Under the pieces are notes generated by a model. The model worked only from the letters and a program-made list of their open reading frames with translations, had not been told where the DNA came from and made no database searches. From a bacterium (GTDB lineage Bacteria; Zhuqueibacterota; Zhuqueibacteria; Oceanimicrobiales; Oceanimicrobiaceae), in NCBI GenBank assembly GCA_046757025.1, contig JBHHXN010000072.1, positions 1 to 24,530 on the forward strand: a stretch of 24,530 nucleotides of DNA, given 5' to 3'. Both the position numbers and the translations under genes were made by a program. Shown here in pieces: positions 6,101 through 24,530 of this stretch. Each line of letters opens with the position of its first letter. Position 1 is the stretch's first letter.

Positions 6101-6158
6101 GAGAACCAGTTATTTAGGGAAGCTAAAAAACCCGAATCCGGAGCTCGAGGAAAGCTGA
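3129..6158 (+). CDS. actB: Alternative complex III ActB (molybdopterin oxidoreductase-like domain fused to Fe-S domain; extended Tat signal, lipobox)
   Basis: YWRSLEEL extension, SRRKFMQL Tat motif and LTAC lipobox; GRPTKIEGNP. C-terminal Fe-S motifs CIGCNACTVAC, CMHCENAPCEVVCP, CVGTRYCSNNCP and CTYC...CQQVCP. ATGA overlap with actA. Confidence 0.96.
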   Translation: MKKSHELGNNTDISAIRAKLQNLRGKAYWRSLEELAETEEFQRLVENEFPQSPMVWEKPFSRRKFMQLMGASLALAGLTACTRQPLEKIVPYVKAPEEIVPGKPLFFASAFTLNGYASGILVESHMGRPTKIEGNPQHPASLGATSVLAQASILDLYDPDRAQVVTNIGSISTWENFVTVLNQQLDSQRLTDGAGIRILTETVTSPTLTDQIQSILQKFPLAKWHQYEPCNGDNLKKGAQLAFGEFVDCRYDYEAADYILTLDADFLAAGPGQLKYARQFTARRKSTENQPDMNRLYAVESTPSLTGAMADHRLPLQTSEIVDLAIALSRELEVLEALDLQIAEGYSPPASERSWRNWMKAAAKDLRRHPGKSLIVVGESQPPPVHLLAHVLNRALGNVGKTVFYSEPVESNPTIQLDSLRQLNDEMANGAVEVLLILGGNPVLTAPADFNITEQMAKVKFSVHLSQQEDETSHWCHWHIPQTHYLENWSDVRAFDGTVTIQQPLIAPLYGGISEHELLAVLTGQTGKSAHDIVKDTWRARMALPEFENFWRTSLHDGVVAGTAVEPKSVPLRIQNKTLEIESISKSMSTDSDFEMVFKPDPNIHDGRFANNPWLQELPKPLTKLTWDNAALISPADAERRRLSNGDVVELQAGEHKLKAPVWILPGQAERSITLHFGYGRKRAGMIGSAVGVDVFKLRTSSATWFATGVKMQKTHDKVKLASTQMHHNMENRHLVRSANLHEFIEQPELFHEMGHDPDPDLTLYPDYEYEGNSWGMVVDLNSCIGCNACTVACQSENNIPVVGKDEVLRGREMHWIRIDRYFEGELENPAVHHQPVMCMHCENAPCEVVCPVAATVHSDEGLNEMVYNRCVGTRYCSNNCPYKVRRFNFFLYADLETPTLKLQRNPDVTVRTRGIMEKCTYCVQRINSARIEAKKEERDIRDGEIITACQQVCPTDAIVFGNINDPESRVAQLKADKRNYGILTDLNTRPRTSYLGKLKNPNPELEES

Positions 6159-7534: not shown

Positions 7535-7569
7535 CCAAAGCTCTAATTGAAAATTGAAATTAAAGTACC

Positions 7570-8311
7570 GCCACTGATATTCACGGATTGAACACGGATA
7601 AAATGAGTTTAGAATTTGAAGATATTACAGAAGCAATAATTGGGGCTGCCTTTGAAGTCTATAATATTCTCGGCTATGGTTTTTTAGAGAAAGTATATCA
7701 AAAAGCATTACAGGTTGAACTGTTACGCCGGGGACATTCTGCAGAACTAGAACATGCTATAAAAGTGAAGTTTAAAGGTGTCATAGTCGGTGATTATGAA
7801 GCGGATCTGTTTGTGGATGGCAAAGTATTAGTGGAAATTAAAGTTGCAAAAAAATATAATCCGAAAGATGAGCCACAGTTGCTGAATGAATTGAAAGCAA
7901 CAAAAATAAGAGTCGGGCTACTCATTAATTTCGGCAAGCAAAAACTAGAATTCAAACGATTCAGTTATGGGTAAAAATCCGTGTGTAATCTGTACTACAA
8001 GCCGACAACATGGTGTTTTTTAGCAAAGTTTTGGACGCTTCAGAACCTATTTTAGCCACGGATTTACACTGATAAAACACAGATTTTAAAATATAAAGTA
8101 TTTGAAATGAACTTTTATCTTCAAGAACCTGTTGTTGATTGATTGTGAAATTAATAAGTAAGCTCAAGTACAAAAGTTTAAATAGTGGAACGAATAATCA
8201 TTTTGTTTTCATATACTAACGGTACTTAAAGGTATTTATCCGTGTCAATCGGTGTTAATCGGTGGCTAAATTATTGGGTTGCGGCTCTACAGTGCTGAGT
8301 GCATCTGTGGC
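7570..8311. mobile_element. Nested cassette with ~10-mer tandem-repeat inverted arms (CACGGAT-type) between actC and actD
   Basis: Left arm gccactgatattcacggattgaacacggata (7570-7600). Right-arm pieces aatccgtgtgtaatctgt (7976-7993) and gtgcatctgtggc (8299-8311). Inner pair tttagccacggatttacactgataaaacacagattt (8051-8086) and tttatccgtgtcaatcggtgttaatcggtggctaaa (8235-8270). Mobility is inferred. Confidence 0.7.
7603..7974 (+). CDS. GxxExxY protein (PD-(D/E)XK nuclease-like)
   Basis: GFLEKVY matches GxxExxY; ADLFVDGKVLVEIK is a D...ExK motif; QLLNEL and GLLINFG are typical. Visibly AT-richer than the flanking act genes. ATG at 7603, alternative TTG at 7588. Confidence 0.93.
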   Translation: MSLEFEDITEAIIGAAFEVYNILGYGFLEKVYQKALQVELLRRGHSAELEHAIKVKFKGVIVGDYEADLFVDGKVLVEIKVAKKYNPKDEPQLLNELKATKIRVGLLINFGKQKLEFKRFSYG

Positions 8312-8370
8312 TGTAACACTAAAAAATGAGTTTTTTATCAACACTGATCTATTCAGATCCCAAAAATATC

Positions 8371-8910
8371 ATGAATAAAGAACGCGAAATCTACGGTTTA
8401 TTAGCGGAATTTGAAAATCCCGAACAACTAATCGAGGCGGCAACGAAGGCGCGTGAGCACGGCTTTCAAAAAATGGACGCCTATACACCGTTTCCTGTGG
8501 AAGAGCTGCCGCAAGCAGTGGGCTTCAAAAAACCGATGCTGCCGCTCATCGTGCTCATTGGCGGCATCGTCGGGGCGCTGCTGGGATTTGGCATGCAATA
8601 TTACGCTTCGGTCATTTCGTACCCACTGAATGTGGGCGGCCGACCGCTGAATAGCTGGCCGTCGTTCATTCCCATAACCTTCGAAATGACGATTTTGGTA
8701 GCGGCCTTTTCTGCGGTACTCGGCATGTTTGCTTTGAACAAGCTGCCCATGCCGTACCATCCGGTATTTAACGTACCGCGTTTCAAACTGGCGTCGCGCG
8801 ACCGCTTCTTTCTGTGTATCGAAAGCAAAGACCCGCAATTCTATTTAAAACAAACCGCGGAGTTTTTAAAATCGCTGCATGCGGTGGAGGTATTTGAGGT
8901 GGAGCCGTGA
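8371..8910 (+). CDS. actD: Alternative complex III ActD (DUF3341)
   Basis: YGLLAEF, MDAYTPFPV, YPLNVGGRPLNSWPSFIPITFE, ASRDRFFL; two TM helices. An in-frame upstream ATG exists at 8326. Confidence 0.93.
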   Translation: MNKEREIYGLLAEFENPEQLIEAATKAREHGFQKMDAYTPFPVEELPQAVGFKKPMLPLIVLIGGIVGALLGFGMQYYASVISYPLNVGGRPLNSWPSFIPITFEMTILVAAFSAVLGMFALNKLPMPYHPVFNVPRFKLASRDRFFLCIESKDPQFYLKQTAEFLKSLHAVEVFEVEP

Positions 8911-8918
8911 TTTTATTT

Positions 8919-8960
8919 GAGGATAGAAAATAGAGAATAGAGGTTTGAAAATAGAAAATA
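8919..8960 (+). repeat. Heptamer tandem array (GAAAATA-like x6), left arm
   Basis: gaggata gaaaata gagaata gaggttt gaaaata gaaaata. Confidence 0.85.
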
Positions 8961-8964
8961 AATT

Positions 8965-9218
8965 TAGCCTGAACTATTCAAAAAAATATTAACGCAGAGT
9001 TCGCCGAGGACGCTGAGTTACACAGAGAAAATCCTAAGGATTTAAGACCATGAGAGTCAGGCATTGACCTGGAAGTGTTGCATAAAGCAATCGCCTTTCT
9101 CTGCGTCCTTTGCGAACTCTGCGTTTAGAAACTTGTTTTAACGTCAGACAATTACTTAACATGTATATATTAATCGCTTTAAGGCTTTCTCAAACAGATT
9201 TTGGAATAACCCAGGTTA
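8965..9218. mobile_element. MITE-like element with imperfect ~21-bp terminal inverted repeats, containing an inner 9-mer-armed inverted repeat
   Basis: Ends: tagcctgaactattcaaaaaa (8965-8985) vs revcomp of 9198-9218, taacctgggttattccaaaat. Inner arms: aacgcagagttcgccgaggacgctgagttacacagagaaa (8991-9030) vs revcomp of 9096-9127, taaacgcagagttcgcaaaggacgcagagaaa (14-bp exact core). Confidence 0.65.
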
Positions 9219-9286
9219 GGAATTAGGATTTTAAAAATCGTTGTGATAAATAGCTTTTTATCAGATAAATCCTCGATACGCGGGAT

Positions 9287-9346
9287 TTCATGGTTCGACT
9301 CCGCTCACCATGAAGAAGTTAGCTTCACCTGGAGCAGTCGAGGGGT
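9287..9346. repeat. REP-like TTCGAC...GCTC hairpin plus degenerate inverted partner
   Basis: ttcatggt-tcgactccgctc-accatgaa (8-bp stem, 9287-9314). gagcagtcga (9332-9341) is the revcomp of tcgactccgctc with a 2-nt deletion. Confidence 0.6.
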
Positions 9347-9383
9347 GCCGACTGATTTATCTCGACTTTCCAGCCAGACTTCC

Positions 9384-9515
9384 GGGCGTTTGTATAAAGC
9401 CGCGTTCATGAACAAAATCAACGAAGCCCTGGGAGAAGCCTGGCAGCACATCGGCGCCATGCTGAACAAAATGATCCAACGAGCAGATAGTTTTTGTCAA
9501 ACTAATATTAAATAG
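9384..9515 (+). pseudogene. Four-helix-bundle protein (TIGR02436 / 23S rRNA IVP-like) C-terminal remnant with internal deletion
   Basis: GRLYKAAFMNKINEALGEA|WQHIGAMLNKMIQRADSFC follows the family pattern RRY.AAF..KL..A.GEA...I..ML.KMI. The N-terminus and the ETQxWL segment are missing. Confidence 0.7.
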
Positions 9516-9525
9516 GGAAAATTAA

Positions 9526-10194
9526 GTGGCATTCATAAAAATCAATTTTCGATTTTCCATCTTCCATCATCTATCTTCTATCTTCAATCTTTTTATTTAT
9601 TTGAAAAATATTCGAAGATGGACAAACTATAAAATTATTTTATTAGCAGTCACAATAATCAACACAACCGCCTGCCGGCAGGACATGCACGATCAGCCCA
9701 AATTACAGCCGTTGGAAGCCAGTGATTTTTTCAAGGACGGCCGGGCTTCCCGGTCGCTGATCGAGGGCACCGTGGCACGCGGCCATTTAAACAATGACCC
9801 ACATTTATATCAGGGGAGAGTTGACGGAGAGCTGGTCTGGACGTTTCCTTTCCCGATCACCAAAGAAGTTTTGCGGCGCGGCGAAGAACGCTACAACATT
9901 TTCTGTTCGCCCTGCCACGATCAGCTTGGATATGGACGGGGAATGATTGTCCAGCGCGGTTTTCGACAGCCGCCCTCGTTTCACATCGACCGGCTGCGCA
10001 ATGCGCCAGCCGGACATCTTTTTGACGTCATCTCCAACGGTCTGGGCGCCATGTTTGATTATGCTGAACGCATTCCGGTCCACGACCGCTGGGCCATCGT
10101 GGCGTATATTCGCGTGCTGCAGTTGAGTCAAAACGCCACCATGGACGATGTGCCAGAAGAATTGCGACAACCGTTAATGGAAAACAATAAATGA
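9526..10194 (+). CDS. actE: Alternative complex III monoheme cytochrome c lipoprotein
   Basis: AC-RQDMHDQPK lipoprotein N-terminus, GTVARG, a single CSPCH, DRWAIVAYIRVLQLSQ. Start is uncertain: GTG 9526 (agggaa upstream) or TTG 9601. Confidence 0.92.
   Translation: MAFIKINFRFSIFHHLSSIFNLFIYLKNIRRWTNYKIILLAVTIINTTACRQDMHDQPKLQPLEASDFFKDGRASRSLIEGTVARGHLNNDPHLYQGRVDGELVWTFPFPITKEVLRRGEERYNIFCSPCHDQLGYGRGMIVQRGFRQPPSFHIDRLRNAPAGHLFDVISNGLGAMFDYAERIPVHDRWAIVAYIRVLQLSQNATMDDVPEELRQPLMENNK
9544..9592 (-). repeat. Heptamer tandem array (x7), right arm, inverted relative to 8919-8960
   Basis: aattttc gattttc catcttc catcatc tatcttc tatcttc aatcttt; revcomp units are gaaaatt, gaaaatc, gaagata and similar. 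Confidence 0.85.
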
Positions 10195-11363
10195 ACGATT
10201 TTGAGTCCACCAAACCGGTATTGAGTCAAGTCCAGCTCCGCGTCTTTATTTTCGGACTGGCGGGAATGGCCATTTGTGCTGCGGGCGCCTTTTACAATGC
10301 CGAGCAGTTTTTTCAATCCTACCTGCTGGGCTACGTCTTCTGGATCGGCATCGCACTCGGCAGCCTGGCTCTGCTGGCTTTACACCACCTTGTGGGCGGC
10401 GGCTGGGGATTCTCCATTCAGCGCGTTTTAGAAGCTGGCACACGTACTCTGCCCTTATTTGTGCTGCTATTTTTGCCGTTGCTTTTCAATATGCCGAAAC
10501 TCTACATTTGGGCGCAGCCGGAAAAGGTTGCCATGGACACCGTGCTGCAGCACAAAAGCGTTTATCTCAATGTACCCTTTTTCGGTGTACGGACCGGCAT
10601 TTATTTTGTCATCTGGGGAATTTTAATCTATTTATTGAACAAGTGGTCGCTGGCACTGGATCGAGCAAAGAACGCGCCTCTGCTCAGCCGCATTCAAAAA
10701 ATCTGCGGACCCGCCATCCTGCTGTACGTGCTCACGGTGACCTTTTCATCCATCGACTGGGTGATGTCGCTGGATCCGCACTGGTTTTCCACGATTTTCG
10801 GATTCGTGTTCGTCATCGGTCAGGCGCTGCTCACCCTGGCTTTTGCCATCATCTGGACGGGCAAACTCGCTAAATTCAGTCCTCTGGCGGAAGTCATTCA
10901 AAAGAAACATTTTCATGATCTGGGCAATTTGCTGCTGGCGTTCGTCATGCTCTGGGCCTACATCTCGCTGTCACAATTTCTCATCATCTGGTCTGGTAAT
11001 TTGCCGGAAGAGATCCCCTGGTATCTGCATCGTTTGCACGGCGGCTGGCAGTGGCTGGCTTTTGCGGTGGTGATTTTTCATTTCACTCTGCCGTTTGTGG
11101 TGCTGCTATCCCGGCGCAGTAAACGCCGGGTGGAAATTCTCACCCGGGTAGCATACCTGATTATCATCATGCGCCTGTTGGATTTGTTCTGGTTCGTGGC
11201 GCCTAATTTTCATGCAGAAAATATCCGCGTACATTGGCTGAACATTCTGGTTCCGCTGGCCATGGGCGGCGTATGGTTGGCCTTTTTTATCCAGCAACTC
11301 AAAACAAGGGCGCTGTTGCCCCTGCACGATCCCCGAATGAAAGAGGCATTTCATCATGAGTGA
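10191..11363 (+). CDS. actF: Alternative complex III membrane subunit ActF
   Basis: Polytopic; HHLVGGGWG, YLNVPFF, DWVMSLDPHWFSTIFG, HFHDLGNLL, SQFLIIWSGNLPEE. ATGA overlap with actE. Confidence 0.93.
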   Translation: MNDFESTKPVLSQVQLRVFIFGLAGMAICAAGAFYNAEQFFQSYLLGYVFWIGIALGSLALLALHHLVGGGWGFSIQRVLEAGTRTLPLFVLLFLPLLFNMPKLYIWAQPEKVAMDTVLQHKSVYLNVPFFGVRTGIYFVIWGILIYLLNKWSLALDRAKNAPLLSRIQKICGPAILLYVLTVTFSSIDWVMSLDPHWFSTIFGFVFVIGQALLTLAFAIIWTGKLAKFSPLAEVIQKKHFHDLGNLLLAFVMLWAYISLSQFLIIWSGNLPEEIPWYLHRLHGGWQWLAFAVVIFHFTLPFVVLLSRRSKRRVEILTRVAYLIIIMRLLDLFWFVAPNFHAENIRVHWLNILVPLAMGGVWLAFFIQQLKTRALLPLHDPRMKEAFHHE

Positions 11364-11787
11364 GAAGAAAAGAGAAGCCGTGAAAAAAAATCATTCTAAC
11401 TACGAACGCAGCGATGCAAAAATCCGTGCCATCACTTGGTCGGGAATAAGCTTGCTCGCGCTGATCTTTCTCATTTTTGTTGTCATATTTGGGGTGTTTC
11501 ATTTACTCAAAGAGAAGAGACAAAAATCCTTGCCCGTTCCATCGCCGCTGGCCGGTGCAAAGCAGCAGAAAGTCATCGAGTCACAGTTGTTGGTGCAACC
11601 GGCCATGGAGCTGGTAAAATTTCGGGCGCTGCAAGACTCCTTGAAATCCCATTATGGTTGGGTGGTGAAAGAAGCCGGCGTGGTGCGCATCCCTGTCGAT
11701 CGTGCGATGGAGCTCATGCTGCAGCGCGGTTTACCCGTGCGGCAAAATTTGTCAGTACAACCTCATGGGGAAGAAAGAATAAAATGA
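11356..11787 (+). CDS. actG: ActG-like single-TM subunit
   Basis: YERSD, one TM helix, YGWV...GVVRIPVDRAMELMLQRGLP. Position after actF. Confidence 0.75.
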   Translation: MSEKKREAVKKNHSNYERSDAKIRAITWSGISLLALIFLIFVVIFGVFHLLKEKRQKSLPVPSPLAGAKQQKVIESQLLVQPAMELVKFRALQDSLKSHYGWVVKEAGVVRIPVDRAMELMLQRGLPVRQNLSVQPHGEERIK

Positions 11788-11912
11788 GTTTGTCTGTCCA
11801 GTTAACTCGGAAACCGGTAGTTCTGAGAAGTTCTGTGACAAGGCGCAGAATGACAATAAAATTAAAATTTACCGGATAAAATGGAGAATCCTAAACAGTG
11901 AGGATTTATGCC

Positions 11913-12776
11913 ATGAAAAAAAAGAATTGTTTTCACCATTTTTTAAACGCATACGCGATTTTACTGCTGGTCGCGGTAGCCTGCCTGTGGACCCCGGCGG
12001 CTTCTCTTCTGGCGCAGGAAATCAAAGCCAGTCAGCAAATCGATGTGTTGGAAGAAGTGGGAATCGACCAAAAACTCAACGAGCAAATTCCTTTGAATTG
12101 GTTTTTCACCGACGCCGGCGGGCGTTCCGTGCAATTGCAGGAATATTTCAATGAAAAACCCGTGATCCTGGCTTTTGTCTATTATGAATGCCCCATGCTT
12201 TGCACCATGGTGCTCAACGGCTTGCTGCAAAGCATCAACACATTGAATTTTAACGTGGGCAGTCATTATGAGATCGTTACCGTCAGTTTCGATCCAGGAG
12301 AAACGCCCAAATTGGCGGCAGGGAAAAAAACCACTTATGTGAACAAATATGGCCGACGGGGCGCTGCAGATGGTTGGCATTTTCTCACCGGCGATGAAGC
12401 CGCCATCAAGGCGTTGACTCAGGCTGCGGGTTTCAAATACAAATACGATCCCGAAACCGACCAGTATATTCATGCCAGCGGGGTGATGGTGCTGACGCCG
12501 GAGGGCCGGCTTTCGCGTTATTTTTACGGTGTGGAATACTCCGCCCGCGATCTCAAGCTGGCGCTCATGGAAGCTTCAAAAAACAAAATCGGGTCGGCTG
12601 TCGATCAAATTTTGCTGTACTGCTATCACTACGATCCCACAACAGGAAAATACGGAGTGGCCATCATGCGCATCATTCGCGTGCTGGGCAGCGCCACCGT
12701 GATCATCATAGTAGCATTTATGCTCATCATGTTTCGCCGCGACAGGCGGGCAAAACGAGCCGCCATAACACATTAA
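11913..12776 (+). CDS. SCO1/SenC family copper chaperone
   Basis: Signal peptide, VGIDQKL, YYECPMLC (CxxxC), YIHASG, YCYHYDP and a C-terminal TM helix. ATG 11913 follows gagg; alternative GTG at 11898. Confidence 0.92.
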   Translation: MKKKNCFHHFLNAYAILLLVAVACLWTPAASLLAQEIKASQQIDVLEEVGIDQKLNEQIPLNWFFTDAGGRSVQLQEYFNEKPVILAFVYYECPMLCTMVLNGLLQSINTLNFNVGSHYEIVTVSFDPGETPKLAAGKKTTYVNKYGRRGAADGWHFLTGDEAAIKALTQAAGFKYKYDPETDQYIHASGVMVLTPEGRLSRYFYGVEYSARDLKLALMEASKNKIGSAVDQILLYCYHYDPTTGKYGVAIMRIIRVLGSATVIIIVAFMLIMFRRDRRAKRAAITH

Positions 12777-12792
12777 ATTTTGAGATTTCATC

Positions 12793-13737
12793 ATGGACAA
12801 AGGATTTAAATTATTACCGGAGCAAGCTTCCACCCTGGCAGGAAAAATCGATCTTCTCTATTTTTTTCTGGTGCTGGTGAGCCTCTTTTTTGCGGCGCTG
12901 ATATTTTTTCTCATCTATATTTTCGTGGTAAAATATCGCCGGCGTTCGGAAGACGAAGTCCCCAAAGAATTACCCGGACTGTTGAAACTGGAGCTGCTCT
13001 GGACCATCATCCCGCTGATTCTGGTGCTAGTGGTATTTGCCTGGGGCGCCTCGTTGTATTTTACCAGCTACTCGCCACCCGAAGATGTGCTGGAAATTTT
13101 TGTGGTGGGCAAACAATGGATGTGGTATGTGCAGCATCCCACTGGCCAGCGCGAAATTAATGAATTGCACGTTCCCATAGACCGAGCCGTGAAGTTGACC
13201 ATGGCCACCGAAGACGTCATCCACAGCTTTTACATTCCGGCATTTAGAATCAAAAAAGACGTGGTGCCGGGAAGATACACCACCATGTGGTTCGAAGCTA
13301 CCAAACCCGGCGAGTATCATTTGTTTTGTGCTGAATATTGCGGCACCAAACACTCTGAAATGAGAGGTCGGGTGGTGGTGATGGAACCCAATGATTACCA
13401 GAACTGGCTGAGCGGTGGGGCTGGCACGGAACCGATGAAAGTTTCGGGTGAGAAAAAATTTCAACAACTGGCCTGCCACACCTGTCACAAAGAGGTGCCC
13501 GGCGCCCGCGGCCCCTCGCTGGTCGGCATATTCGGACAGCCCGTGCTGCTGGAAAGCGGGCAAACAATGCTGGTTAACGAAGATTACATTCGAGAGTCCA
13601 TTCTCACCCCGAATGCCAAGATCAAAGCGGGCTTCAAACCGGTCATGCCGACTTTCAAAGGCCAGATCGACGAAATCAGCTTGCTGCAGATTACGGCTTA
13701 TATTAAATCTTTATCAAAAGATAGGAGCAATGATTGA
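12793..13737 (+). CDS. coxB: Cytochrome c oxidase subunit II with fused cytochrome c (caa3 type)
   Basis: Two TM helices, [20 protein letters not shown], CuA motif [12 protein letters not shown] and C-terminal CHTCH...MP. Confidence 0.96.
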
Positions 13738-15410
13738 TGAGCACCGCCGTTTTTAAACATCGCAGTTCCCAGTTGTCTGATGATCAAAATGGCTCTGAAA
13801 GAAATTACCTGAACGCCGGTTTCAGCGCCAAATCGTGGCTGCTAACCGTGGATCACAAGCGCATCGCCATTTTATATCTCATCGCCATCACGCTGTTTTT
13901 CTTTTTAGGCGGGATGTTTGCAGTGCTGATTCGGCTAGAGCTGCTCACACCGCAGGGCGATCTCATGCAGTCGGAAACCTACAACAAAATGTTTACCATG
14001 CACGGCATCATCATGATCTTCTTTTTTCTGATCCCGTCGATTCCGGCTGTGCTCGGAAACTTTCTCATTCCACTCATGATCGGCGCCCGCGACCTGGCGT
14101 TTCCGCGCATCAATCTGTTGAGCTGGTACGTTTACGTGGTTGGCGGCCTGTTTACGTTTGCCGCCATCGTCTTCGGTGGGGTGGATACCGGCTGGACGTT
14201 TTATACGCCCTACAGCAGCACGTACGCCAACACCAATGTGATTCTGGCGGCCATCGGTGTGTTTGTCACCGGTTTTTCGTCGATTTTAACTGGATTGAAT
14301 TTTCTGGTTACCATCCACAAAATGCGTGCTCCCGGGCTGACCTGGTTTCGACTGCCGCTGTTTGTGTGGGCGCATTATGCCACCAGCATCATTCAAATTT
14401 TGGGCACCCCGGTCGTGGCCATCGCCATCGTGCTGGTGGGCCTGGAAAGGCTGTTTCAGATCGGCATCTTCGATCCCAACCTGGGCGGCGATCCGCTGTT
14501 GTTTCAGCACCTGTTCTGGTTCTACTCACACCCGGCCGTGTATATCATGATTTTGCCGGGCATGGGCGTGATCAGCGAGATCATCACCTGCTTTGCAAAA
14601 AAGAAAATTTTTGGTTATCAATTCATCGCCTTCTCCAGCATCGCCATCGCGGTTATGGGCTTTTTAGTCTGGGGACACCACATGTTCACCAGCGGCCAAT
14701 CCATGTATGCCAGTCTGGTGTTTTCGATTTTGACGTTTCTGGTTGCAATTCCTTCGGCCATCAAAGTCTTCAACTGGACCGCCACGCTTTACAAAGGCTC
14801 GGTTTCTTATGAAGCGCCCATGCTGTACGCCCTCGGTTTTATCGGCTTGTTCACCGTGGGCGGGTTGACCGGCATTTTCCTCGGCACCCTGGCGGTGGAT
14901 GTACACGTACACGACACCTACTTTGTGGTGGCGCATTTTCATTACATCATGGTGGGCGGCGCCATCATGGCTTACTTGAGCGGCATTCATTTCTGGTGGC
15001 CGAAAATGACCGGCCGCCTCTATCCGGAAGGCTGGGCGCGTTTTTCCGCGCTGGTCATTTTCATCGGCTTCCACCTGACCTTTTTCCCGCAGTTCATCGT
15101 GGGCTACCTCGGCATGCCGCGGCGCTATCATGCTTATCCAGAAGAATTTCAAATCCTGAATGTGCTCTCCTCGGCTGGCGCCACCATACTCGGGGTGGGT
15201 TATTTGATCCCGTTGATATATTTTATCTGGTCCCTGCGCTACGGCAAAAAAGCCAGCGCCAATCCCTGGAACGCCAAAGGTCTGGAATGGGAACGGGTGC
15301 CTTCCCCGCCTACAACGCATAATTACGAAAACATACCGGTGGTGACGGAAGAAGCTTATGAATATACTGCACAGCAGTCGAAGGAAGTTTTACAAAATGA
15401 AAAAATCTAA
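13737..15410 (+). CDS. coxA: Cytochrome c oxidase subunit I (A2 type)
   Basis: [24 protein letters not shown] (YS motif of A2 enzymes), [26 protein letters not shown] aggag at 13723-13727. Confidence 0.97.
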
Positions 15411-15448
15411 TTTAGCCATACAATTCTTAATTGACATCGCAGCCATTA

Positions 15449-15555
15449 GTCATTGCGAGTCCCGCGTTTTTTGCGAGACGAAGCCATCTCTTAACTTTCA
15501 TAAAATCAGGGGATTGCCTCGTCATCCCGCTTTTGGCGGGATTCCTCGCAATGAC
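15449..15555. repeat. Complete REP/RPE-like palindromic element GTCATTGCGAG...CTCGCAATGAC
   Basis: Perfect 11-bp terminal inverted repeat. Internal gaagccatctc / ggggattgcctc pair and side hairpins tcccgc..gcgaga and atcccgc-ttttg-gcgggat. Confidence 0.9.
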
Positions 15556-15625
15556 AATTTAATTGGTAAACTAATTTCCAAATCAAGACACTAGTTTATA
15601 AAACTGAAATTAACGGAGAGTAAAC

Positions 15626-16270
15626 TTGTCTGAAAAACCCGGCGCATTAGCCCATCATTTTGAAGATATGGAGCAGCAATTCGAAGCCTCCACACTGGGT
15701 ATGTGGGCGTTTTTGGTAACGGAAATTTTGTTTTTCGGCGGCTTGTTTGCGGGTTATCTGGTGTACCGCACCAAGTATCCACAGGCGTTTGATCTGGGCA
15801 GCCACGAGCTGGACATCGTTCTGGGCGCCATCAACACCGCCGTGCTGATTCTCAGCAGCCTGACCATGGCGTTAGCCGTGCACTGGGGGCAAAAAGGCCA
15901 GAGCAAAAGAATCGTGCTGTTTCTCATTTTCACCATGATTTTAGGCGCGACCTTTCTCGGCATCAAGGCCGTGGAATATGCGCACAAAGCCCACGAACAT
16001 CTGGTACCCAGCACCGGCTTCCTTTTCGAGGGAGCGCACGCGGATCAGGTGCGCATTTTCTTCTCCTTCTATTTTGCCATGACCGGCATGCACGCCTTTC
16101 ACATGATCATCGGTCTGGGGCTGCTGGCTTACCTGGTAATTCAAGCATGGAAAGGCAAGTACACCGCCAAATACAACACCCCCATCGACTTAATTGGACT
16201 TTACTGGCATTTTGTGGATATTGTCTGGATTTTTCTGTTTCCACTGCTTTATTTAATAGGAAGAAATTAA
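15626..16270 (+). CDS. coxC: Cytochrome c oxidase subunit III
   Basis: GMWAFLVTEILFFGGLF, NTAVLILSS, TGMHAFH, GLYWHFVDIVWIFLFPLLY. TTG start after ggagag. Confidence 0.95.
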   Translation: MSEKPGALAHHFEDMEQQFEASTLGMWAFLVTEILFFGGLFAGYLVYRTKYPQAFDLGSHELDIVLGAINTAVLILSSLTMALAVHWGQKGQSKRIVLFLIFTMILGATFLGIKAVEYAHKAHEHLVPSTGFLFEGAHADQVRIFFSFYFAMTGMHAFHMIIGLGLLAYLVIQAWKGKYTAKYNTPIDLIGLYWHFVDIVWIFLFPLLYLIGRN

Positions 16271-16272
16271 AA

Positions 16273-16575
16273 ATGTCACAACATATCGTACCGCAAAGAG
16301 TCTATTTTCTGATCTTTTTTATCTTGATCGTTTTAACCGCCATGACGGTGTGGGTGGCGTTTCTGGATTTAGGCCCCATCAACGACGTGCTGGCGCTGTC
16401 CATCGCCAGCGTCAAAGCCATGCTGGTGATCCTCTATTTCATGCACGTACGCTACAGCAGCAAGCTCATCGGAATTTTCGTGGGCGCGGGCTTTTTGTTT
16501 TTGCTGATTCTGCTGGTGTTTACCATGAGCGATATCCTGACACGGGGCTGGGGGACGCCGGCGGTGGGATGGTAG
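16273..16575 (+). CDS. coxD: Cytochrome c oxidase subunit IV (COX4_pro family)
   Basis: ATG 2 nt after the coxC stop; three TM helices; IASVKAMLVILYFMHVRY. Confidence 0.92.
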   Translation: MSQHIVPQRVYFLIFFILIVLTAMTVWVAFLDLGPINDVLALSIASVKAMLVILYFMHVRYSSKLIGIFVGAGFLFLLILLVFTMSDILTRGWGTPAVGW

Positions 16576-17385: not shown

Positions 17386-18780
17386 ATGAGCCATCGCATT
17401 GAAAAAGATACCATGGGAACCATCGAGGTGCCCGCGGACAAGTACTGGGGCGCGCAGACCCAGCGCTCGTTAGGCAATTTCAAAATCGGCGGACAGCGCA
17501 TGCCCATCGAAATTATCCACGCTTTTGCCATACTCAAAAAAGCCGCCGCCCTCACCAATTTCGAGGCCGGCATCCTGCCCGAAGACAAAGCGCAGATCAT
17601 CGCGCAGGTATGCGGTGAGATTTTGGCGGGTAATTTGGACGAGCACTTTCCGCTGGTGGTGTGGCAAACCGGCTCCGGCACCCAGTCCAACATGAACGTC
17701 AACGAAGTGATCTCCAATCGCGCCATCGAGTTGCTGGGCGGTGAAATGGGCTCGAAAAATCCCATCCATCCCAACGACGACGTCAACAAGTCGCAATCTT
17801 CAAACGACACCTTTCCAACCGCCATGCATATCGCCGCCTACAAATTGCTCACGGAAAACACCTTGCCGAAACTCCAGGCTTTGCACGACACGTTGGCTGC
17901 GAAAGCCAAAGATTTCATATCCATCGTCAAAATTGGCCGCACGCATTTGATGGATGCCACGCCCCTCACGCTCGGTCAGGAATTTTCTGGATACGCATCG
18001 CAATTAAAGCACGGCATGCAGGCCATCAAGAATACTTTGCCGCATTTGTCCGAGCTGGCGCTGGGTGGCACCGCCGTGGGCACGGGCATCAACACGCCGC
18101 CGGGATTTGCTGAAAACGTGGCGAAAAAAATTGCCGAATTGACTGGCTTGCCGTTTGTGACCGCGGAGAACAAATTCGAATCCCTGGCCGCACACGATGC
18201 CATTGCCGAATCGCACGGAGCGTTAAAAACCGTGGCCGTGAGTTTGATGAAAATCGCCAACGATATTCGATTGCTCGCTTCCGGACCCCGCTGCGGCATC
18301 GGTGAGATCATGTTACCAGCCAACGAGCCCGGCTCCTCCATCATGCCCGGCAAAGTCAATCCCACACAGGCCGAAGCGCTGACCATGGTGGCGGCGCAGG
18401 TCATGGGCAACGACGTGGCCATCAACGTCGGCGGCATGAACGGACATTTTGAGCTGAACGTGTTCAAACCGGTGATGATCTACAATCTGCTCATGTCAGC
18501 AAGACTGATCGGAGACGCCTCCGAGTCGTTCAATAAAAATTGTGCAGTTGGCATCGAACCCAATCACGAAGCTATCAAAAAGAATCTGGAGAATTCGCTT
18601 ATGCTGGTCACCGCATTAAATCCCGTCATCGGCTACGACAAAGCGGCGGCGGTGGCGAAGAAAGCGCACCAGGAGGGCAGTACGTTGCGAGAGGCGGTAG
18701 TCAGCCTGGGGTATCTCACTGCAGAAGATTTCGATAAGCACGTGGTGCCGGAAAAAATGGTGGGCGAGCTGCCGAAATAA
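17386..18780 (+). CDS. fumC: Class II fumarate hydratase
   Basis: [59 protein letters not shown] and signature [16 protein letters not shown] gaggag. Confidence 0.98.
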
Positions 18781-18789
18781 TCGTCTTTG

Positions 18790-18825
18790 AATCCCCGGTG
18801 ATCATTATTTCACCGGGGATTTTTT
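18790..18825 (+). terminator. Rho-independent terminator of fumC
   Basis: aatccccggtga-tcattatt-tcaccggggatt (12-bp stem) ending in a T-run, 9 nt after the stop. Confidence 0.9.
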
Positions 18826-19163
18826 CATTCTCACAAATCTATCTTGTTTTTACAAAACTTTCTACTTTAAAATGATGCTCTGTTCTCAAAAGTGAGAAAA
18901 AAGTGCTCTGTGTTCCTCTGATCTACACACATTGAGAGAGGAACCAGAATTCCAATTTCAAAAATTTCGTTTTTTTGTTGTAAAAGTATATGTTCAATAT
19001 TTTTATATAATTAGACTTAGTACTGGTCAATTATTTCGACTTTCATCCTAACCTATGCGGTCAATCACACACAATGGAATAAAAATTGCTTAATTAACCC
19101 AAACCCGAAATATCCGGCACATAACCGACGTTTTGAATATGGAAGCTGAAAAGGAGACTAATT

Positions 19164-19412
19164 GTGAATGACCAGGACGATTTCTTGAATAAGCCATTCC
19201 ACCAGCCTGCCGAATCCCAAAGCCACTCTTGTTTTGCTGTTCGCGATGGCGATTGGATTATTTTTCGCTGCTCCATCTGTGCAGATTACGAACGCAGAAT
19301 CAACTGGCGAACCGGTAAAATGAAGGTGCACAGTAAAAATTCCGCTCAAATTCGTCACAATGGCGTGTACCTGCCGAACGAATACAAAGAAGTCTATATG
19401 AATAGCAATTAA
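19164..19412 (+). CDS. Small hypothetical protein, possible Zn-binding (H-x-C...CxxC...H)
   Basis: Strong RBS aaggag (19151-19156) before GTG; HSC...DGDWIIFRCSICADYERRINWRTGKMK...RH. Confidence 0.7.
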   Translation: MNDQDDFLNKPFHQPAESQSHSCFAVRDGDWIIFRCSICADYERRINWRTGKMKVHSKNSAQIRHNGVYLPNEYKEVYMNSN

Positions 19413-19507
19413 TAGACTTGTACTTTATCGTTTAGTAAAAATCCAGTCCGCTTCAGGTAGGTGCCTCACATCTCATGCGCCCACCCAATCCAACTCCTGC
19501 CTGCGAA

Positions 19508-19815
19508 CAACTTTTTGAAAAAAGTTGCATGACCTCTTCCTTCGACTGCACTTCGAAGAAAAGCTCTTTTTTTGGGTTTTCAAACTTTAGGCTTGTGTGA
19601 AAAGTCAAACTCAGGGGTATTTGTCATTCCACACCTTGCGGGACTGGCAGGAGGCCTCTTTTTTTATTCGACGTAATGTGCTGTTTATTAAAAAGATTCT
19701 TCCAGAATGACTGTAGTGGCGAACTTGGTATTTAGTTGATGTTATGATTTTTCACACAGTCTCTACACTCAGAATGAAATTGGTAACAAAATTACCTTAC
19801 TCTGCGCAGGATGCT
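19508..19815. repeat. Cluster of degenerate palindromic/REP-like pieces with a nested inverted-repeat element
   Basis: Hairpin caacttttt-ga-aaaaagttg (19508-19527) and ccttcgactgcac (19539). Inverted repeat tgtgtgaaaagtca (19594-19607) / tgatttttcacaca (19745-19758) encloses gtcattc (19623) ... agattcttccagaatgac (19694-19711). ctcagaatga follows at 19768. Confidence 0.55.
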
Positions 19816-19880
19816 GTCACGCCCAAAATTCTCTTTTTTACTGAAATTCAAAGCCAAAACTTCTCTCACTCAAAATAGAT

Positions 19881-20843
19881 TCAATACACATTCAGAAACC
19901 CCACCTCCAGGTATTCATCCTCCGGGGTCGGGCCATTGCCTTCCTGACTGAACGACACGGCTGCTTCCAGAAGATAGGTGCCGATTTCCTGCAAAGCGAT
20001 GGCGCGGGTTTTCACGGGCACCATTTTAGCAGAAGGCAAAATCTCCTTGCTTTGCCCAACAATTTGTTTGGTACCCCCGGCCAGGCGTTTAGCATAAATT
20101 CTTACTGCCACATCGACCAGCTCTTCTGCAGTTAACTTCAAATCAGAAAGATCCATTTGGAACTGAATTTCAAAAGGCTGCTCCTGATGCAGCATGTTGC
20201 TGGGTTTGCGCGAACTTTCTGGCAGGATGACCACGTCCCGCAATCGTGAAACTTGCTGTGGTTTCCCCTCCCCTTCCAGCGCCTCCATTTCAGGCAAACT
20301 TTCTTTACCCACCTCTGACGTTTCCGCTTGTGTTTGCGAAGATTGAAAATTCACAGCTTCGTCTGGTAACTGCGGCAGGTGGTTGGAAATGAATTCAATG
20401 ATAACCTGTTCATCCAGACTTCCAAAGGCCTTTTTGTCTTTCGATAGCGGGTGTTTAATTCTACCCTGGTATTGTCCCTGGCGGGGATAAATATCGATTT
20501 GAAAAGTTGATTTGGAGGAGGAAATTTCCTTATCGATCAATTCCGTTTCGGTTTCCTGAGCCTGCTGGATTTCCAGTTTGTTCAGCTTGGCATTTAACTC
20601 CTCAAATTCATTTTGCAGATGCTGCCGTTGGCGTTCTGCCTCCCGTTGTTCAAGCCGGGACTCTTCAAGCTGTTTTTGTATTTCATCTATATTAGCGTTG
20701 GATTTTTGCAATGCTTTTGCATTTGCCACCAACTCAGATTCCAGCTTATCAATGGTTTTATTAGCCTCAAGCAATTCTTGCTGCAACTGGGCTTTGGTTT
20801 TACCATTTTGTTTTGCCGACGTTCCTTTTCCTGAAGCATTCAT
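19881..20843 (-). CDS. Hypothetical protein: N-terminal coiled coil, small alpha/beta domain, C-terminal beta-sandwich-like domain
   Basis: RBS cgaggt. Residues ~17-100 are a Q/E/K/L heptad-rich stretch; middle STFQIDIYPRQGQYQGRIKHPLS..KAF..LD...IEFI; C-terminal ...QPFEIQF...RIYAKRL...GTYLLEAAVSF...LNVY. Confidence 0.85.
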   Translation of the reverse strand: MNASGKGTSAKQNGKTKAQLQQELLEANKTIDKLESELVANAKALQKSNANIDEIQKQLEESRLEQREAERQRQHLQNEFEELNAKLNKLEIQQAQETETELIDKEISSSKSTFQIDIYPRQGQYQGRIKHPLSKDKKAFGSLDEQVIIEFISNHLPQLPDEAVNFQSSQTQAETSEVGKESLPEMEALEGEGKPQQVSRLRDVVILPESSRKPSNMLHQEQPFEIQFQMDLSDLKLTAEELVDVAVRIYAKRLAGGTKQIVGQSKEILPSAKMVPVKTRAIALQEIGTYLLEAAVSFSQEGNGPTPEDEYLEVGFLNVY

Positions 20844-20993
20844 GAAAGAACCTCGCTAATTTATTTTTTAAACGAAAATTGTTTAATCGGAATCATTCAG
20901 ATCCCCAAAAACAAAAAGCACAAATTCTGGTTTCATTAATTTATATGAGAACGGACAATTTTTTGACTCATTCACTGCAAAAACTTTAAATTC

Positions 20994-21028
20994 ATTTTGT
21001 CCTTTGTCCTTTGTCCCTTGTCCTTTGT
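20994..21028. repeat. Heptamer tandem array (CCTTTGT x4-5)
   Basis: attttgt cctttgt cctttgt cccttgt cctttgt. Confidence 0.85.
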
Positions 21029-21074
21029 ACTGATGGGTGCTGCGATGAAAATAGATTTCCCTTTCAGGCATAAT

Positions 21075-21116
21075 AAATCACGAAGGAGCCGAAACCAACC
21101 TGCTCCTTCGTGATTT
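21075..21116 (-). terminator. Strong hairpin downstream of 21215..21781 (terminator or processing/stability element)
   Basis: aaatcacgaaggagc, 12-nt loop, gctccttcgtgattt: a perfect 15-bp stem, T-rich on both exits. Confidence 0.7.
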
Positions 21117-21214
21117 TTGCTTTCATCAACATTTGTACTTTTTCCAAATCTGATGGAAAATTAAATCTCGCATCAATGTTAGAGAAAAGAATTCTACAAA
21201 TGGCAATTAAAAGA

Positions 21215-21781
21215 TTATGCTTTGTAGAACTGAACCAACCCGAAATCGGCAAATGCCGCGATGGGGGCTGGCTTGCCCGTGGGCCCGGCAAAAGTCAGGG
21301 TAGCCACCAGTCGGTAAACTCCCGGGTCGGTTACGGTATTTGCAGGAATGCTGACCGTATGTGAATAATCATGATTTTTCCCTGTAAAGGCCGAACCGCC
21401 GATCTCAAATTTGACTTTGCTTGGTGCCGGCAGCAGGCTGTCATCAAACTCTCCTTTACCCATTTGTTCCAGGTAAATTCTGGGCGTGTAGTTGCCGGAA
21501 ATCAGCGGGCAGAAATCGCCTTCATCAGTCCATTTAAAATCCACAGTCCATGGCTGATCGAGCTGAATCGCTTTGCTGTCGCGGTAAGCCCATTGAGAAT
21601 AGTACTTTGTAAATTCGCCCGTAGGTACCGAAGTTTTCTTTTTGGGATCCCATTTATATTGTTCATAGGCACTCCCTTCTTTGCCTTCGGCAAACCCAGC
21701 CGAAGAAGCGCCTTCAGATAAAGCAGCCGCACCGGCGAGACCAAAATGAGGCAACGAGTCCTCTAATTTAAAAGAAGCCAT
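21215..21781 (-). CDS. Hypothetical protein with a beta-sandwich-like domain
   Basis: RBS aaggag (21788-21793). IQLDQPWTVDFKW...RIYLEQMG...SIPANTVTDPGVYRLVATLTF...FADFGLVQFY. No clear signal peptide. Confidence 0.88.
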   Translation of the reverse strand: MASFKLEDSLPHFGLAGAAALSEGASSAGFAEGKEGSAYEQYKWDPKKKTSVPTGEFTKYYSQWAYRDSKAIQLDQPWTVDFKWTDEGDFCPLISGNYTPRIYLEQMGKGEFDDSLLPAPSKVKFEIGGSAFTGKNHDYSHTVSIPANTVTDPGVYRLVATLTFAGPTGKPAPIAAFADFGLVQFYKA

Positions 21782-21914
21782 ATCTTACTCCTTTATATAA
21801 ATATCTTTCGGGAACCAGTTCACCCCAAGCTATTTTATTTAGCTTTAGTTCCCAAAGATGTTTGTATGAATGAAATGAATTAAAATCTCCCGAGAGGAAT
21901 GTGAACGTAGCTCA

Positions 21915-21968
21915 AATATAAAGAAAAAAATTTAACCGGCGCTTAAAAGGCACTTAATTTGCACTTAA
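21915..21968 (-). promoter_or_regulatory. Putative SARP-type operator: four direct repeats with 11-bp period followed by a -10 box
   Basis: Minus strand reads TTAAGTGcaaa TTAAGTGcctt TTAAGCGccgg TTAAATT, 8 nt, TATATT (21920-21915). TTAA occurs at 21965, 21954, 21943 and 21932. No good -35. Confidence 0.7.
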
Positions 21969-23296
21969 AACAATTCCGCATTGACATTATCTTTTTTGAT
22001 TTGTTCATACAATTTCAGCGTGGTTTGTGTCGGGCTGACTTCCAGCTCCGATTCCAGGATTTCCGTACATTTCCGAAACTGCTTGATGGCTTTGTCTCTT
22101 TGTCCCAGGCGATAAAAGCACCACATGAGCCGGCGATGAATATCTTCCCGACAATTGTCTTTGAACAAAATATGCTCACACAGGTGGATGGCCGTGTCGG
22201 GTTTACCGTCCAGGCTGTAGTGCCGGCTGAGTCGATCCAAAATGACCAGATAAATTTCCTTGAGATTCTCCCGATCCAGCGTGGGCCAGTTTTCATACAG
22301 CTCTTCCTGCATGAAATCGGCGTTGTACAGCGCCGCTGCCAGCTCGTACTCGCTCAGGGCAGCCTGGGTATTTTTCTCTCTTTCAATGCTTTGCGCCACT
22401 TTCCAATGAAGAAGAAATTCTTCTACATCCAGCCAGATTTCAACCTCGGGATTCAAATAATAACATTCTTCTTTGAAAAGGATGTACTCGTGCAGCGGGT
22501 CACGCACCTGAAAGGTCTGACGCAATCCGTGCAAAGCCACATTCAGGCAATTGCGCGCGGAATCCGGTGTGGAGTCCGGCCAGAATTTGTCCATGAGGAT
22601 ATCCCGATAAATCCGCCTTTTATGATTGAAAGCCAGATAGGCAAAGATGGATCGCCCTTTTCGGCTGGGCCACGTTTGAATTTCGCTGGTCTTCAGAAAT
22701 GTGCGGAAGTTACCCAGAAAATGAACTTGCATTTTGGGCAGATTGACAATCACTGTGCAAGGCTGCTTTTCCGGTTTGTCAAAGCCAAGGCTTTTAAAGC
22801 GCCATTGCAGGAACTGTGCCAAACGCATCAGCCAGGATGGGTTGCCCGCGCTGTTCCCGCGTGCTGCCAGAATGTGCCAATTACTCGGTCTACCATTTTT
22901 TACCTTTTGATCGTTCAATTGTGGGTGAGGTTTATTTACCTCCAGCAGGCGTTTAACTCGGTCACACAGGATTTCTGGTTCGAGGGGTTTTTCGATGAAA
23001 TCTTTTGCGCCACTGCGAAATGCTTTGATGATGATCTCTTTCGTCGGTGCCGCAGCGACAAAAATGATTGGCAGCTCTGGCGCCACCCGATGCAATTTCT
23101 TCAACACCTCCAGGCCATCTTTATTTGGCAGGCAACGTGCAATGATCGCCAGCGTGATTTTATTTTTTTTCGCTAGCGCCACCGCCCTTTGTCCGCTGGG
23201 TACCCACAGCAACTGAACTTGACCGTCGAATTCCCTGGCCAGCAGTTGCATTGTCAGCTCATCTTCATCAATAACGAGAATTGATCGACCGTCCAT
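21965..23296 (-). CDS. Transcriptional regulator: atypical receiver + OmpR-type wHTH + BTAD (SARP family)
   Basis: REC fold (ILVIDED...LPNKDG...PIIFV...GAKDFIEKP). wHTH: VHFLGNF...WPSRKGRSIFAYL...RDILMDKFWPD...ARNCLNVALHGLR. BTAD: WLDVEEF...DNCREDIHRRLMWCF...G.R..A..QF..C...L..EL.V.P...T..LY. Confidence 0.93.
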   Translation of the reverse strand: MDGRSILVIDEDELTMQLLAREFDGQVQLLWVPSGQRAVALAKKNKITLAIIARCLPNKDGLEVLKKLHRVAPELPIIFVAAAPTKEIIIKAFRSGAKDFIEKPLEPEILCDRVKRLLEVNKPHPQLNDQKVKNGRPSNWHILAARGNSAGNPSWLMRLAQFLQWRFKSLGFDKPEKQPCTVIVNLPKMQVHFLGNFRTFLKTSEIQTWPSRKGRSIFAYLAFNHKRRIYRDILMDKFWPDSTPDSARNCLNVALHGLRQTFQVRDPLHEYILFKEECYYLNPEVEIWLDVEEFLLHWKVAQSIEREKNTQAALSEYELAAALYNADFMQEELYENWPTLDRENLKEIYLVILDRLSRHYSLDGKPDTAIHLCEHILFKDNCREDIHRRLMWCFYRLGQRDKAIKQFRKCTEILESELEVSPTQTTLKLYEQIKKDNVNAELF

Positions 23297-24144
23297 GACG
23301 TTTCCTGAACTTGAAAAATGAAAAATTTAATTGACCGCTTTTCAAAAACACTAAAACGATTTCCTACAAAGCGGATTTTCAGCTAATACGCAGATGTTTG
23401 ATTTCGTGAATGAAAAAAAATCACAAAGGGAAGAGACGTCTTTCTACTCTTCAAAACATTCCGAAGCCACTCAAAAACTTTTGACTTCAGGAAAGTGATT
23501 GCTCCCCAAACTGAAAAATAGCAATCAGGTAAAAAGAGGGCACTGCATGGAGGATAATTTAGAATGTTGATCTATATGAAAAAGAATTTCTCCTTCAAAC
23601 AGGAAAAATCTTATTTTTGCCCTGAAAAGACTTTGCACAAATATGCTGGCTTAACAATTAATTCTAATTTTACTTTTACACGGTTAAACTAGATAGCTTT
23701 CTTTGAAATTTTCAGACCGCAACAGGCATCGACAGACCATTCTCCCCGAGATGAGTTCACGATTTGATGAAAAATGGCAGGAAGGATATTCGAATGGTGA
23801 AAACAAAGAAATGCAAATCTTCAAATTTCAAGTAAATAATATAAAACGATTCTGCAAAAAGCAAGGATTTTTTAAAAATAAGTTTAAATGAACGGCTGTT
23901 AGGAAACCATACCCAATCATACATTTTGTGTGAGCAGTTCGTGCTTAAAGAAAGAAATCCTGAAAAACTGGCACACTCATCAGCAAATTAGAATCCGAAA
24001 AAAGGACTTTGATTTAAACCACTAAATTGTAACAATTCGTTTCAAACCTAAAAATATTTTGCATTTCAGTCATTTAATTCGTAGTTTTTTCATCTCACAA
24101 ATTTAATATAGTTCACAAAAATTCAACGTAAACCAGGTGGGCAT

Positions 24145-24530
24145 TTGTCCGGAATCAGAAACAATTGCACAGTGCTTGTGACACTTTTGATCTTGGGATT
24201 TGATGGTCAGATTTTTGCGGGAAAACACGGCGAAGATTCAAAAGACCAGACCAAACCCTATGTGCCGATGGTGGAGGCGATCAAAGTCGAGAAAGCGCCG
24301 GTCATCGATGGAGAGATTCTCCGCGAAGAAGTCTGGCAAGCTGCCAAACCAGTGACGCAGTTCTGGCAAACCACACCGAATGAAGGTGAAAAGGCTTCTG
24401 AGAAGACGGAAGTGCGGGTCATTTACACAACCGAAAACCTTTATTTTGGCGTCTATTGTTACGACAAAAATCCCAAGGGCATCATCGTTTCCGATAGCCG
24501 GCGGGATGCGTCACTCAATGAAACCGACTG
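24145..24530 (+). CDS. Secreted CBM9-like / DUF5916-type protein, truncated by the window end
   Basis: Not in the ORF track. TTG after aggtgg, a signal-like N-terminus, then APVIDGEI...VWQAA...FWQTTPNEGEKASEKTEVRVIY..ENLYFGVYCYD..P..I....RRD, open to the edge. Confidence 0.82.
   Translation, partial: MSGIRNNCTVLVTLLILGFDGQIFAGKHGEDSKDQTKPYVPMVEAIKVEKAPVIDGEILREEVWQAAKPVTQFWQTTPNEGEKASEKTEVRVIYTTENLYFGVYCYDKNPKGIIVSDSRRDASLNETD

Follow-up and report, generated by a model that had tools for sequence, protein, structure and literature searches.

The minus strand of the 24,530-nt stretch analyzed here (the window) carries four heptamers in direct repetition at the end of a regulator gene and ahead of two further genes, and the question is which protein reads them and to what effect. 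Read directly from the sequence, the array runs from 21968 to 21929 with an 11-bp period and 4-nt spacers: unit 1 TTAAGTG (21962..21968), caaa, unit 2 TTAAGTG (21951..21957), cctt, unit 3 TTAAGCG (21940..21946), ccgg, and unit 4 TTAAATT (21929..21935), units 1 and 4 being delimited by conserved columns as well. The TAA of the regulator (21967-21965) falls within unit 1, and 8 nt past unit 4 stands a predicted -10 hexamer, TATATT (21915..21920, minus strand). The first-pass annotation had the sequence, spacing and coordinates of the array exactly right. It took the array for the cognate site of the regulator and an activator-dependent promoter of the two genes, in a host outside the actinobacteria and with a motif new among SARPs, whose repeat consensus it gave as TCGAG. 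Comparative genomics leads us to a similar prediction, to which we assign a probability of roughly four in five: a SARP-type protein with a pseudo-receiver would use the array as its operator and activator-dependent promoter and thereby control an undescribed module of genes, present in KSB1 and in some Bacteroidota.

How unusual is such a repeat? Four copies of TTAAGTG at period 11, with up to 7 of 28 mismatches, occur once in the 5.96-Mb genome, at the window array (3 mismatches), and the identical four-unit test at periods 8-15 returned 0-5 matches. A motif-free search (any heptamer in four copies, at least 25/28, variable spacers) found two arrays at period 11 and 9, 5, 4, and 0 at periods 9, 10, 12, and 13, that is, 20 arrays of comparable quality genome-wide over the five periods; none appeared in any of three block shuffles of the genome. 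The bare repeat is uncommon, not unique, and by itself no proof of function. Because the genome holds other such arrays, the weight of the case rests on conservation. A weight matrix built without the window site gives the window array 46.5 bits and the next-best genomic site 16.8. A genome scan had been expected to define a regulon; the mismatch scan, the matrix, and a strict pattern found no further site in this genome, and there is one site per module. By the matrix, no array that would point to autoregulation lies upstream of the regulator gene in this window. A short TTAAG run was seen by eye upstream of one regulator of genome G125.

Conservation at orthologous loci is documented by 26 tabulated arrays from 22 genomes and one metagenome contig. 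Array and hexamer lie at the regulator 3' end in 15 loci, 14 of which trained the matrix (G112 was excluded as near-identical to G111); loci L005, L010, and L028, which duplicate the G022 contig, entered the count a single time. In the matrix, the heptamer columns are conserved and most spacer columns are free. Leave-one-out scores of the arrays are 22-47 bits vs. an own-genome background of at most 16.8. Twelve of the 26 arrays are outside the training set, and three such arrays come from two genomes of the phylum Bacteroidota. Unit 2 is the best conserved (TTAAGYG in 20/26 arrays), and unit 4 mainly keeps its TTAA core. Duplicated arrangements were also seen: metagenome contig L029 carries two whole modules in tandem, and G113 has two full tandem arrays 139 nt apart (L085:11158 and 11019, minus strand), with a 616-aa gene that has no Pfam match between two copies of the small gene. 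Proteins from genomes of the same class are labelled KSB1/Calditrichota, so the host likely belongs to Zhuqueibacterota/KSB1, a member of the FCB group (PMC11683472, in the accessible part), and is not an actinomycete, as the first-pass annotation had surmised.

The array also keeps company with the regulator, which backs the reading of a cognate, activator-dependent site. Among 125 genomes of the class, 21 (the own genome included) encode the regulator, patchily within genera, and the matrix finds a four-unit array in 19 of these 21. Run over the 125 whole genomes, the strict pattern matched 14 times. The 12 genomes involved all have the regulator, and every match falls inside the module; among the regulator-negative genomes 0/104 matched, and the backwards control of the pattern gave one match. 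Because regulator loci were the source of both pattern and matrix, and because kin genomes are dependent samples, there is some circularity in the positive counts; the informative parts are the zero in regulator-negative genomes and the lack of matches elsewhere. Two exceptions fit a cognate-regulator model, as judged from their sequences: in G099 the regulator is split over two frames and the array is down to three units, and G052, with a scrambled recognition helix, a long branch, and a 2.2-kb contig, yielded neither array nor target. Two further genomes count against that model. G006 retains an intact 46-bit array and only the BTAD third of the regulator. In G125, which has two regulator orthologs, no four-unit array scores above 15 bits by the matrix; the two are convergent paralogs (L006/L101), and upstream of one target TTTACCG, TTTACCG, and TTAACCG can be made out by eye at an 11-bp period. 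Wider sampling found the regulator in 2/251 Bacteroidota-phylum genomes. In a further set, 5/151 genomes gave matches at E up to 1e-45, three of them long STAND-sized proteins without an array and one cut by a contig end.

Position separates two parts of the locus that coincide in the window. Eleven of the 26 arrays overlap the regulator stop codon, seven lie 3-17 nt behind it, and eight are remote. In G096-G098 the regulator is divergent, in G294 it lies downstream, and in G019 it is 330 nt away; in all of these the array still precedes the targets, and G022 and G654 have two arrays, one before each target. Judged from these loci, the array goes with the target genes and not with the regulator stop codon. 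The overlap, which the first-pass annotation had singled out, is thus not a special trait, and as a designed feature it was rejected on the 15/26 arrays that lack it. A NAL1/trypsin-like gene was seen near the G654 module.

Where the target genes occur and no regulator ortholog was found, they have no array in any of 11 genomes. These are G092, G115, G116, and G118; G013, G075, G081, G121, and G122, which carry a longer target variant; and G536 and G666, read over 16 kb. Four ortholog-less loci combine an adjacent sigma-54 activator with a -24/-12-like box (9-10/12) upstream of the target, and scores of at least 9 for such a box occur in 6/14 regulator-less vs. 1/23 regulator-bearing upstream regions. 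The regulator-less modules L110, L095, L125, and L126 adjoin sigma-54 activators, three of which have PilZ or CHASE2 input. Ahead of the small gene, these modules carry TGGCA-N-TTGA boxes that resemble the -24/-12 type. Another recurrent neighbor, of modules lacking the regulator or of the Cys/His gene described below, is a protein of 610-770 aa that ends in an SLT transglycosylase domain and in one case weakly matches peptidase S64 (L095, L096, L097, L113, L119, L121, L125, L126).

The module itself comprises four genes. Target gene 1 (21215..21781, minus strand) encodes a 188-aa protein with a predicted Ig-like beta-sandwich, and target gene 2 (19881..20843, minus strand) a 320-aa protein in which a small domain lies between a coiled coil and a C-terminal domain; neither matched a Pfam or NCBIfam family. 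The structure model of the 188-aa protein (pLDDT 73) is a generic Ig-like sandwich, with a best Foldseek E of 1.3e-3 (Wzt-C) and best Z values of 10.0 (Integrator subunit) and 9.2 (Wzt-C). In the model, these structural neighbours are generic and point to no function. The C-terminal domain of target 2 is homologous to target 1 (hhalign A1 vs. A3, 97.2%, E 2.9e-11), so by profile comparison both targets share the Ig-like domain. In the window target 2 lacks its own array and is not preceded by a terminator-like site, and it is therefore probably co-transcribed with target 1 across the 370-nt gap. Within that gap, at about 21020-20995 (minus strand), lies a short tandem ACAAAGG-type repeat of four copies, one of them imperfect. 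A longer target variant stands behind four arrays (G007, G008, G033, G067); it matches A1, the family alignment of target 1, weakly (20%, E 0.001), which leaves its homology unproven. Unnamed look-alikes of target 1 appear in an atlas listing, as leads only, from Actinomycetota, Cyanobacteriota, Pseudomonadota, and Chloroflexota.

Most modules fetched are accompanied by a gene for a small Cys/His protein, in the window convergent and of 82 aa (19164..19412, plus strand). Its family alignment has invariant His21, Cys36, Cys39, His65, and a C-terminal Asn, a pattern that makes metal binding likely. The family occurs in 32/125 class genomes, beside the targets in most modules fetched, and in 4/401 Bacteroidota-phylum genomes; several stand-alone copies lack the Asn-ending tail. 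The 82-aa protein matched no family, and its structure model returned no Z of 5 or more. In G116 a homolog lies immediately upstream of a tyrosinase gene (L096:7011-9404). The differing flanking genes and the patchy spread within genera make the module look like a mobile or often-lost unit. Phage carriage was considered and rejected: 38 pattern matches were found on viral contigs, with scores of at most 29 bits, and none of them has module genes. Our best guess, a weakly supported one, is that the targets are a cytoplasmic Ig-domain assembly or a ligand-binding pair, induced on demand. Elsewhere in the window, the plus-strand operon at 2482-16575 is one that we take to encode alternative complex III and cytochrome c oxidase, unrelated to the module, and behind it at 17386-18780 is presumably a class II fumarase gene.

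A TA---T hexamer follows 25 of the 26 arrays, at a gap of 7 nt in 16/25, 8 nt in 8/25, and 9 nt in 1/25; the 8-nt gap noted in the first-pass annotation therefore holds in the window and is the less frequent spacing elsewhere. At spacings of 16-18 nt, none of the 26 promoters matches TTGACA in more than 3/6 positions; the heptamers overlap the -35 region, and unit 3 occupies the -35 position. A consensus promoter scan of the window did not include the array promoter among its listed sites, since that promoter has no -35 match, in line with the model of the first-pass annotation. With TATATT placed at -12..-7, the predicted transcription start is A21908 (minus strand), and the units would begin at -60, -49, -38, and -27, covering -60..-54, -49..-43, -38..-32, and -27..-21.

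Several relatives have a conserved AGGTTCRC-like leader start at the predicted +1. Predicted transcripts behind arrays share a long-range helix, GTTCRC/GYGAAC, which in the window would pair GTTCAC (21906-21901) with GTGAAC (21823-21818) in a possible 5'-terminal leader helix at 21818..21906 (minus strand). One pair is G-C in five and A-U in four of nine leaders, which were hand-picked for having the shared motif, and 23 of all 26 array leaders beat their own shuffled mean. In the window alone the helix is weak (11/30 shuffles are equally good), and it is absent from the minimum-energy fold of the leader (z -1.53); Rfam covariance models gave no match at E up to 1 in window positions 18800-24200. 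Beginning a few bases from the predicted +1, the helix lends indirect support to the placement of the start site, and it is possibly a 5' stabilizing stem.

These promoters also bear on another scenario, in which the neighboring protein binds the array and mainly represses, or blocks read-through from its own gene. The repeats do cover the polymerase footprint, the OmpR-type ArcA represses via 11-bp repeats (PMC4173790, accessible part), and no terminator-like site separates regulator and target. We consider repression unlikely nevertheless, because promoters that lack a -35 match in 26/26 cases would leave little basal activity to repress, the register of the array equals that of activation by AfsR, eight arrays are remote from the regulator 3' end, and an obligately activated sigma-54 arrangement replaces the regulator where it is absent.

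The regulator itself (21965..23296, minus strand; 443 aa) consists, by Pfam and profiles, of a pseudo-receiver, an OmpR-type winged helix, and a BTAD. Pfam places Response_reg at residues 6-114, Trans_reg_C at 211-272 (E 8e-4, below the cut-off), and BTAD at 289-433 (E 4e-19). The winged helix is followed directly by the BTAD, a feature of the SARP family, and a profile of 12 orthologous C-terminal parts aligned along the entire SARP domain with both EmbR (E 4e-11) and AfsR (E 1.5e-8). Since the pseudo-receiver comes first, this domain is not N-terminal as in the small, medium, and large SARP classes, and such an architecture is not part of the SARP classification in the accessible text of PMC10972967. 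Ala53 occupies the phospho-Asp position (end of beta3, aligned to PleD), where 0/17 aligned orthologs have Asp, four distant ones having it one residue later. By this alignment the protein is not a canonical response regulator, and its input is likely phosphorylation-independent: a ligand or partner on the pseudo-receiver, or simply the level of activator. The neighbours of the regulator vary by genome, and the ORF lists, from which 30 selected neighbor and module proteins were Pfam-scanned, contain no recurrent kinase; a partner kinase could still be encoded at a distance.

As for DNA recognition, the contacts of AfsR are Q48, W74, P79, T88, R92, R94, and K95, of which W74, P79, and R94 touch the backbone and T88 and R92 read bases (PMC10936776, accessible part). 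The regulator has W239, P244, and R259 aligned with W74, P79, and R94, and Val253 and Gly257 where AfsR has T88 and R92. Across aligned regulators the R92 position is Gly, Gln, or His and the K95 position Gln or Arg; Q48 is not reliably aligned. A near-identical heptamer would thus need reading by other residues, a point against the activator model. Regulators that come with an array keep the recognition helix, AR[NK][CS]L[NH]V[AT][LIV]H, almost unchanged, and the regulators form one clade (98/95) in the tree, apart from five other BTAD proteins including the STAND-type protein of the genome.

In another scenario the neighbor would be a bystander, and the array would be read by a global OmpR/PhoB-type regulator, by the STAND-type BTAD protein of the genome, or by some alternative sigma factor. 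Sites of the OmpR/PhoB family have an 11-bp period in common (PMC2275107 and PMC4832192, accessible parts), G006 keeps its array without the DNA-binding domain of the regulator, and G000 also encodes a second BTAD protein. We regard another reader as quite improbable: a second site is missing from the own genome and any strict-pattern match from the 104 regulator-negative genomes, the target genes of the 11 ortholog-less genomes are array-less, and the STAND-type BTAD proteins, whose helix differs, group in a clade apart and have no array at any of their fetched loci. Least credible, and by sequence comparison largely refuted, is the idea that no protein reads the repeats and that they reflect chance or an AT-rich structure connected with the stop codon or with DNA bending: although the genome has 20 motif-free four-unit arrays over five periods and TTAA contains the TAA that 11/26 arrays overlap, in two phyla the heptamers are kept and the spacers vary, the TA---T hexamer follows at a fixed distance, 15/26 arrays have no stop overlap, and the viral-contig matches score at most 29 bits with no module gene beside any of the 38.

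The proposed activation by the adjacent pseudo-receiver/winged-helix/BTAD protein, bound to the four repeats in the manner of a SARP, can be outlined as follows. Up to four protomers would line up head-to-tail along one face of the helix, units 1 and 2, taken as the best conserved, nucleating cooperative loading. Since unit 3 matches TTCAGCG in 6/7 positions in the afsS register, the protomers on units 3 and 4 (-38 and -27) may act like AfsR, taking its places at afsS and standing in for sigma region 4 at -35, with polymerase recruited via sigma R4, the beta-flap, and alphaCTD. From a promoter with a likely -10 hexamer and no -35 match, transcription would start near 21908 and proceed through the two downstream Ig-domain genes. 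The graded conservation of the units might give a threshold response.

The mechanism of activation is itself already known; what the locus would add concerns where, and by which protein, it is used. Within the literature covered, SARP activation is described for actinomycetes only, and the array predicts the same geometry, with almost the same heptamer as that of AfsR, in the FCB group. A literature search that took in few subscription journals and set supplements aside returned nothing on the regulator clade, the motif, or the module, and no BTAD operator outside actinomycetes. The array provides a predicted operator for an uncharacterized clade of pseudo-receiver/BTAD regulators and outlines a four-gene module of undescribed function with relatives, as atlas leads, reaching Actinomycetota, Chloroflexota, and Cyanobacteriota. 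One site per genome suggests a possible use as an orthogonal activator-promoter pair. A broader picture, to which we give somewhat better than even odds, is one of SARP-type sigma adaptation beyond actinomycetes. Here a KSB1/Bacteroidota clade of pseudo-receiver SARPs would use a near-AfsR heptamer and register, with a graded four-protomer array gated by a phosphorylation-independent receiver, and would switch an undescribed mobile module of four genes (two Ig-domain proteins, the Cys/His protein, and the activator) in which a sigma-54 enhancer system can take the place of the whole control.

Compared with known systems, the locus shares with SARP promoters the 11-bp heptameric direct repeats, their overlap with the -35 region, and a poor -35 element, in agreement with the SARP-like geometry first proposed. 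It differs from classical SARP loci, which control developmental or secondary-metabolite genes in actinomycetes, in that the targets belong to no Pfam or NCBIfam family and the host is not an actinomycete. By architecture, host, and targets, as far as sequence analysis goes, this is not a classical SARP. Among receiver proteins, the atypical response regulator ChxR likewise has a receiver fold, described as working without phosphorylation, joined to a winged helix; the accessible text of PMC3960148 mentions no BTAD for it, whereas the present regulator has a full SARP domain as its output. EmbR of Mycobacterium tuberculosis (PDB 2FEZ) is the best natural match of the SARP domain in the structural database (E 4e-11), but its input is a C-terminal FHA domain instead of an N-terminal pseudo-receiver. 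The small SARPs ActII-ORF4 and DnrI and the SARP-LAL PimR, as described in the accessible parts of PMC10972967 and PMC5930380, also use heptamers with 4-nt spacers and proposed cooperative binding, PimR depending on the full heptamer triplet (PMC5930380), which sets a precedent for the cooperative loading proposed here, and are cluster-situated, controlling neighboring genes only; unlike the present regulator, they have, in the reviewed cases, two or three heptamers, and they have biosynthetic-cluster targets and no receiver domain. Published repeats vary: one passage on SARPs, in its accessible part, has TCGAG/TCGAA, and a consensus CGTT(T/C)ATCGNN is given elsewhere (PMC10972967, in part).

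A close parallel is AfsR at the afs box of Streptomyces coelicolor. The excerpted PMC10936776 places the repeats of the afsS promoter 8 bp from the -10, at distances of 11 or 22 bp from one another; TTCAGC at -38..-33 is given as the -35 element, and AfsR makes contacts at T-38 and T-27. The base following TTCAGC comes from the accessible part of PMC11301090. SARP promoters are described as stringently keeping 8 bp between repeat and -10 (PMC8306873, in part), and the prevailing 7-nt gap of the arrays counts against the SARP reading. The array differs in having four units instead of two and mostly a 7-nt gap, the regulator in carrying an N-terminal pseudo-receiver instead of the C-terminal NOD and TPR of AfsR and in lacking T88 and R92, and the locus in its FCB-group host and in targets without known function rather than a regulator of secondary metabolism. 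Alike are the winged-helix/BTAD domain with the residues corresponding to W74, P79, and R94, the 11-bp direct repeats over the -35 region, and, when the gap is 8 nt, an initial T at -38 in the penultimate repeat and at -27 in the last. The motif that had been called new is in fact close to a known one, TTAAGCG of unit 3 and TTCAGCG, the upstream repeat of the afs box, being identical at 6/7 positions in the same register.
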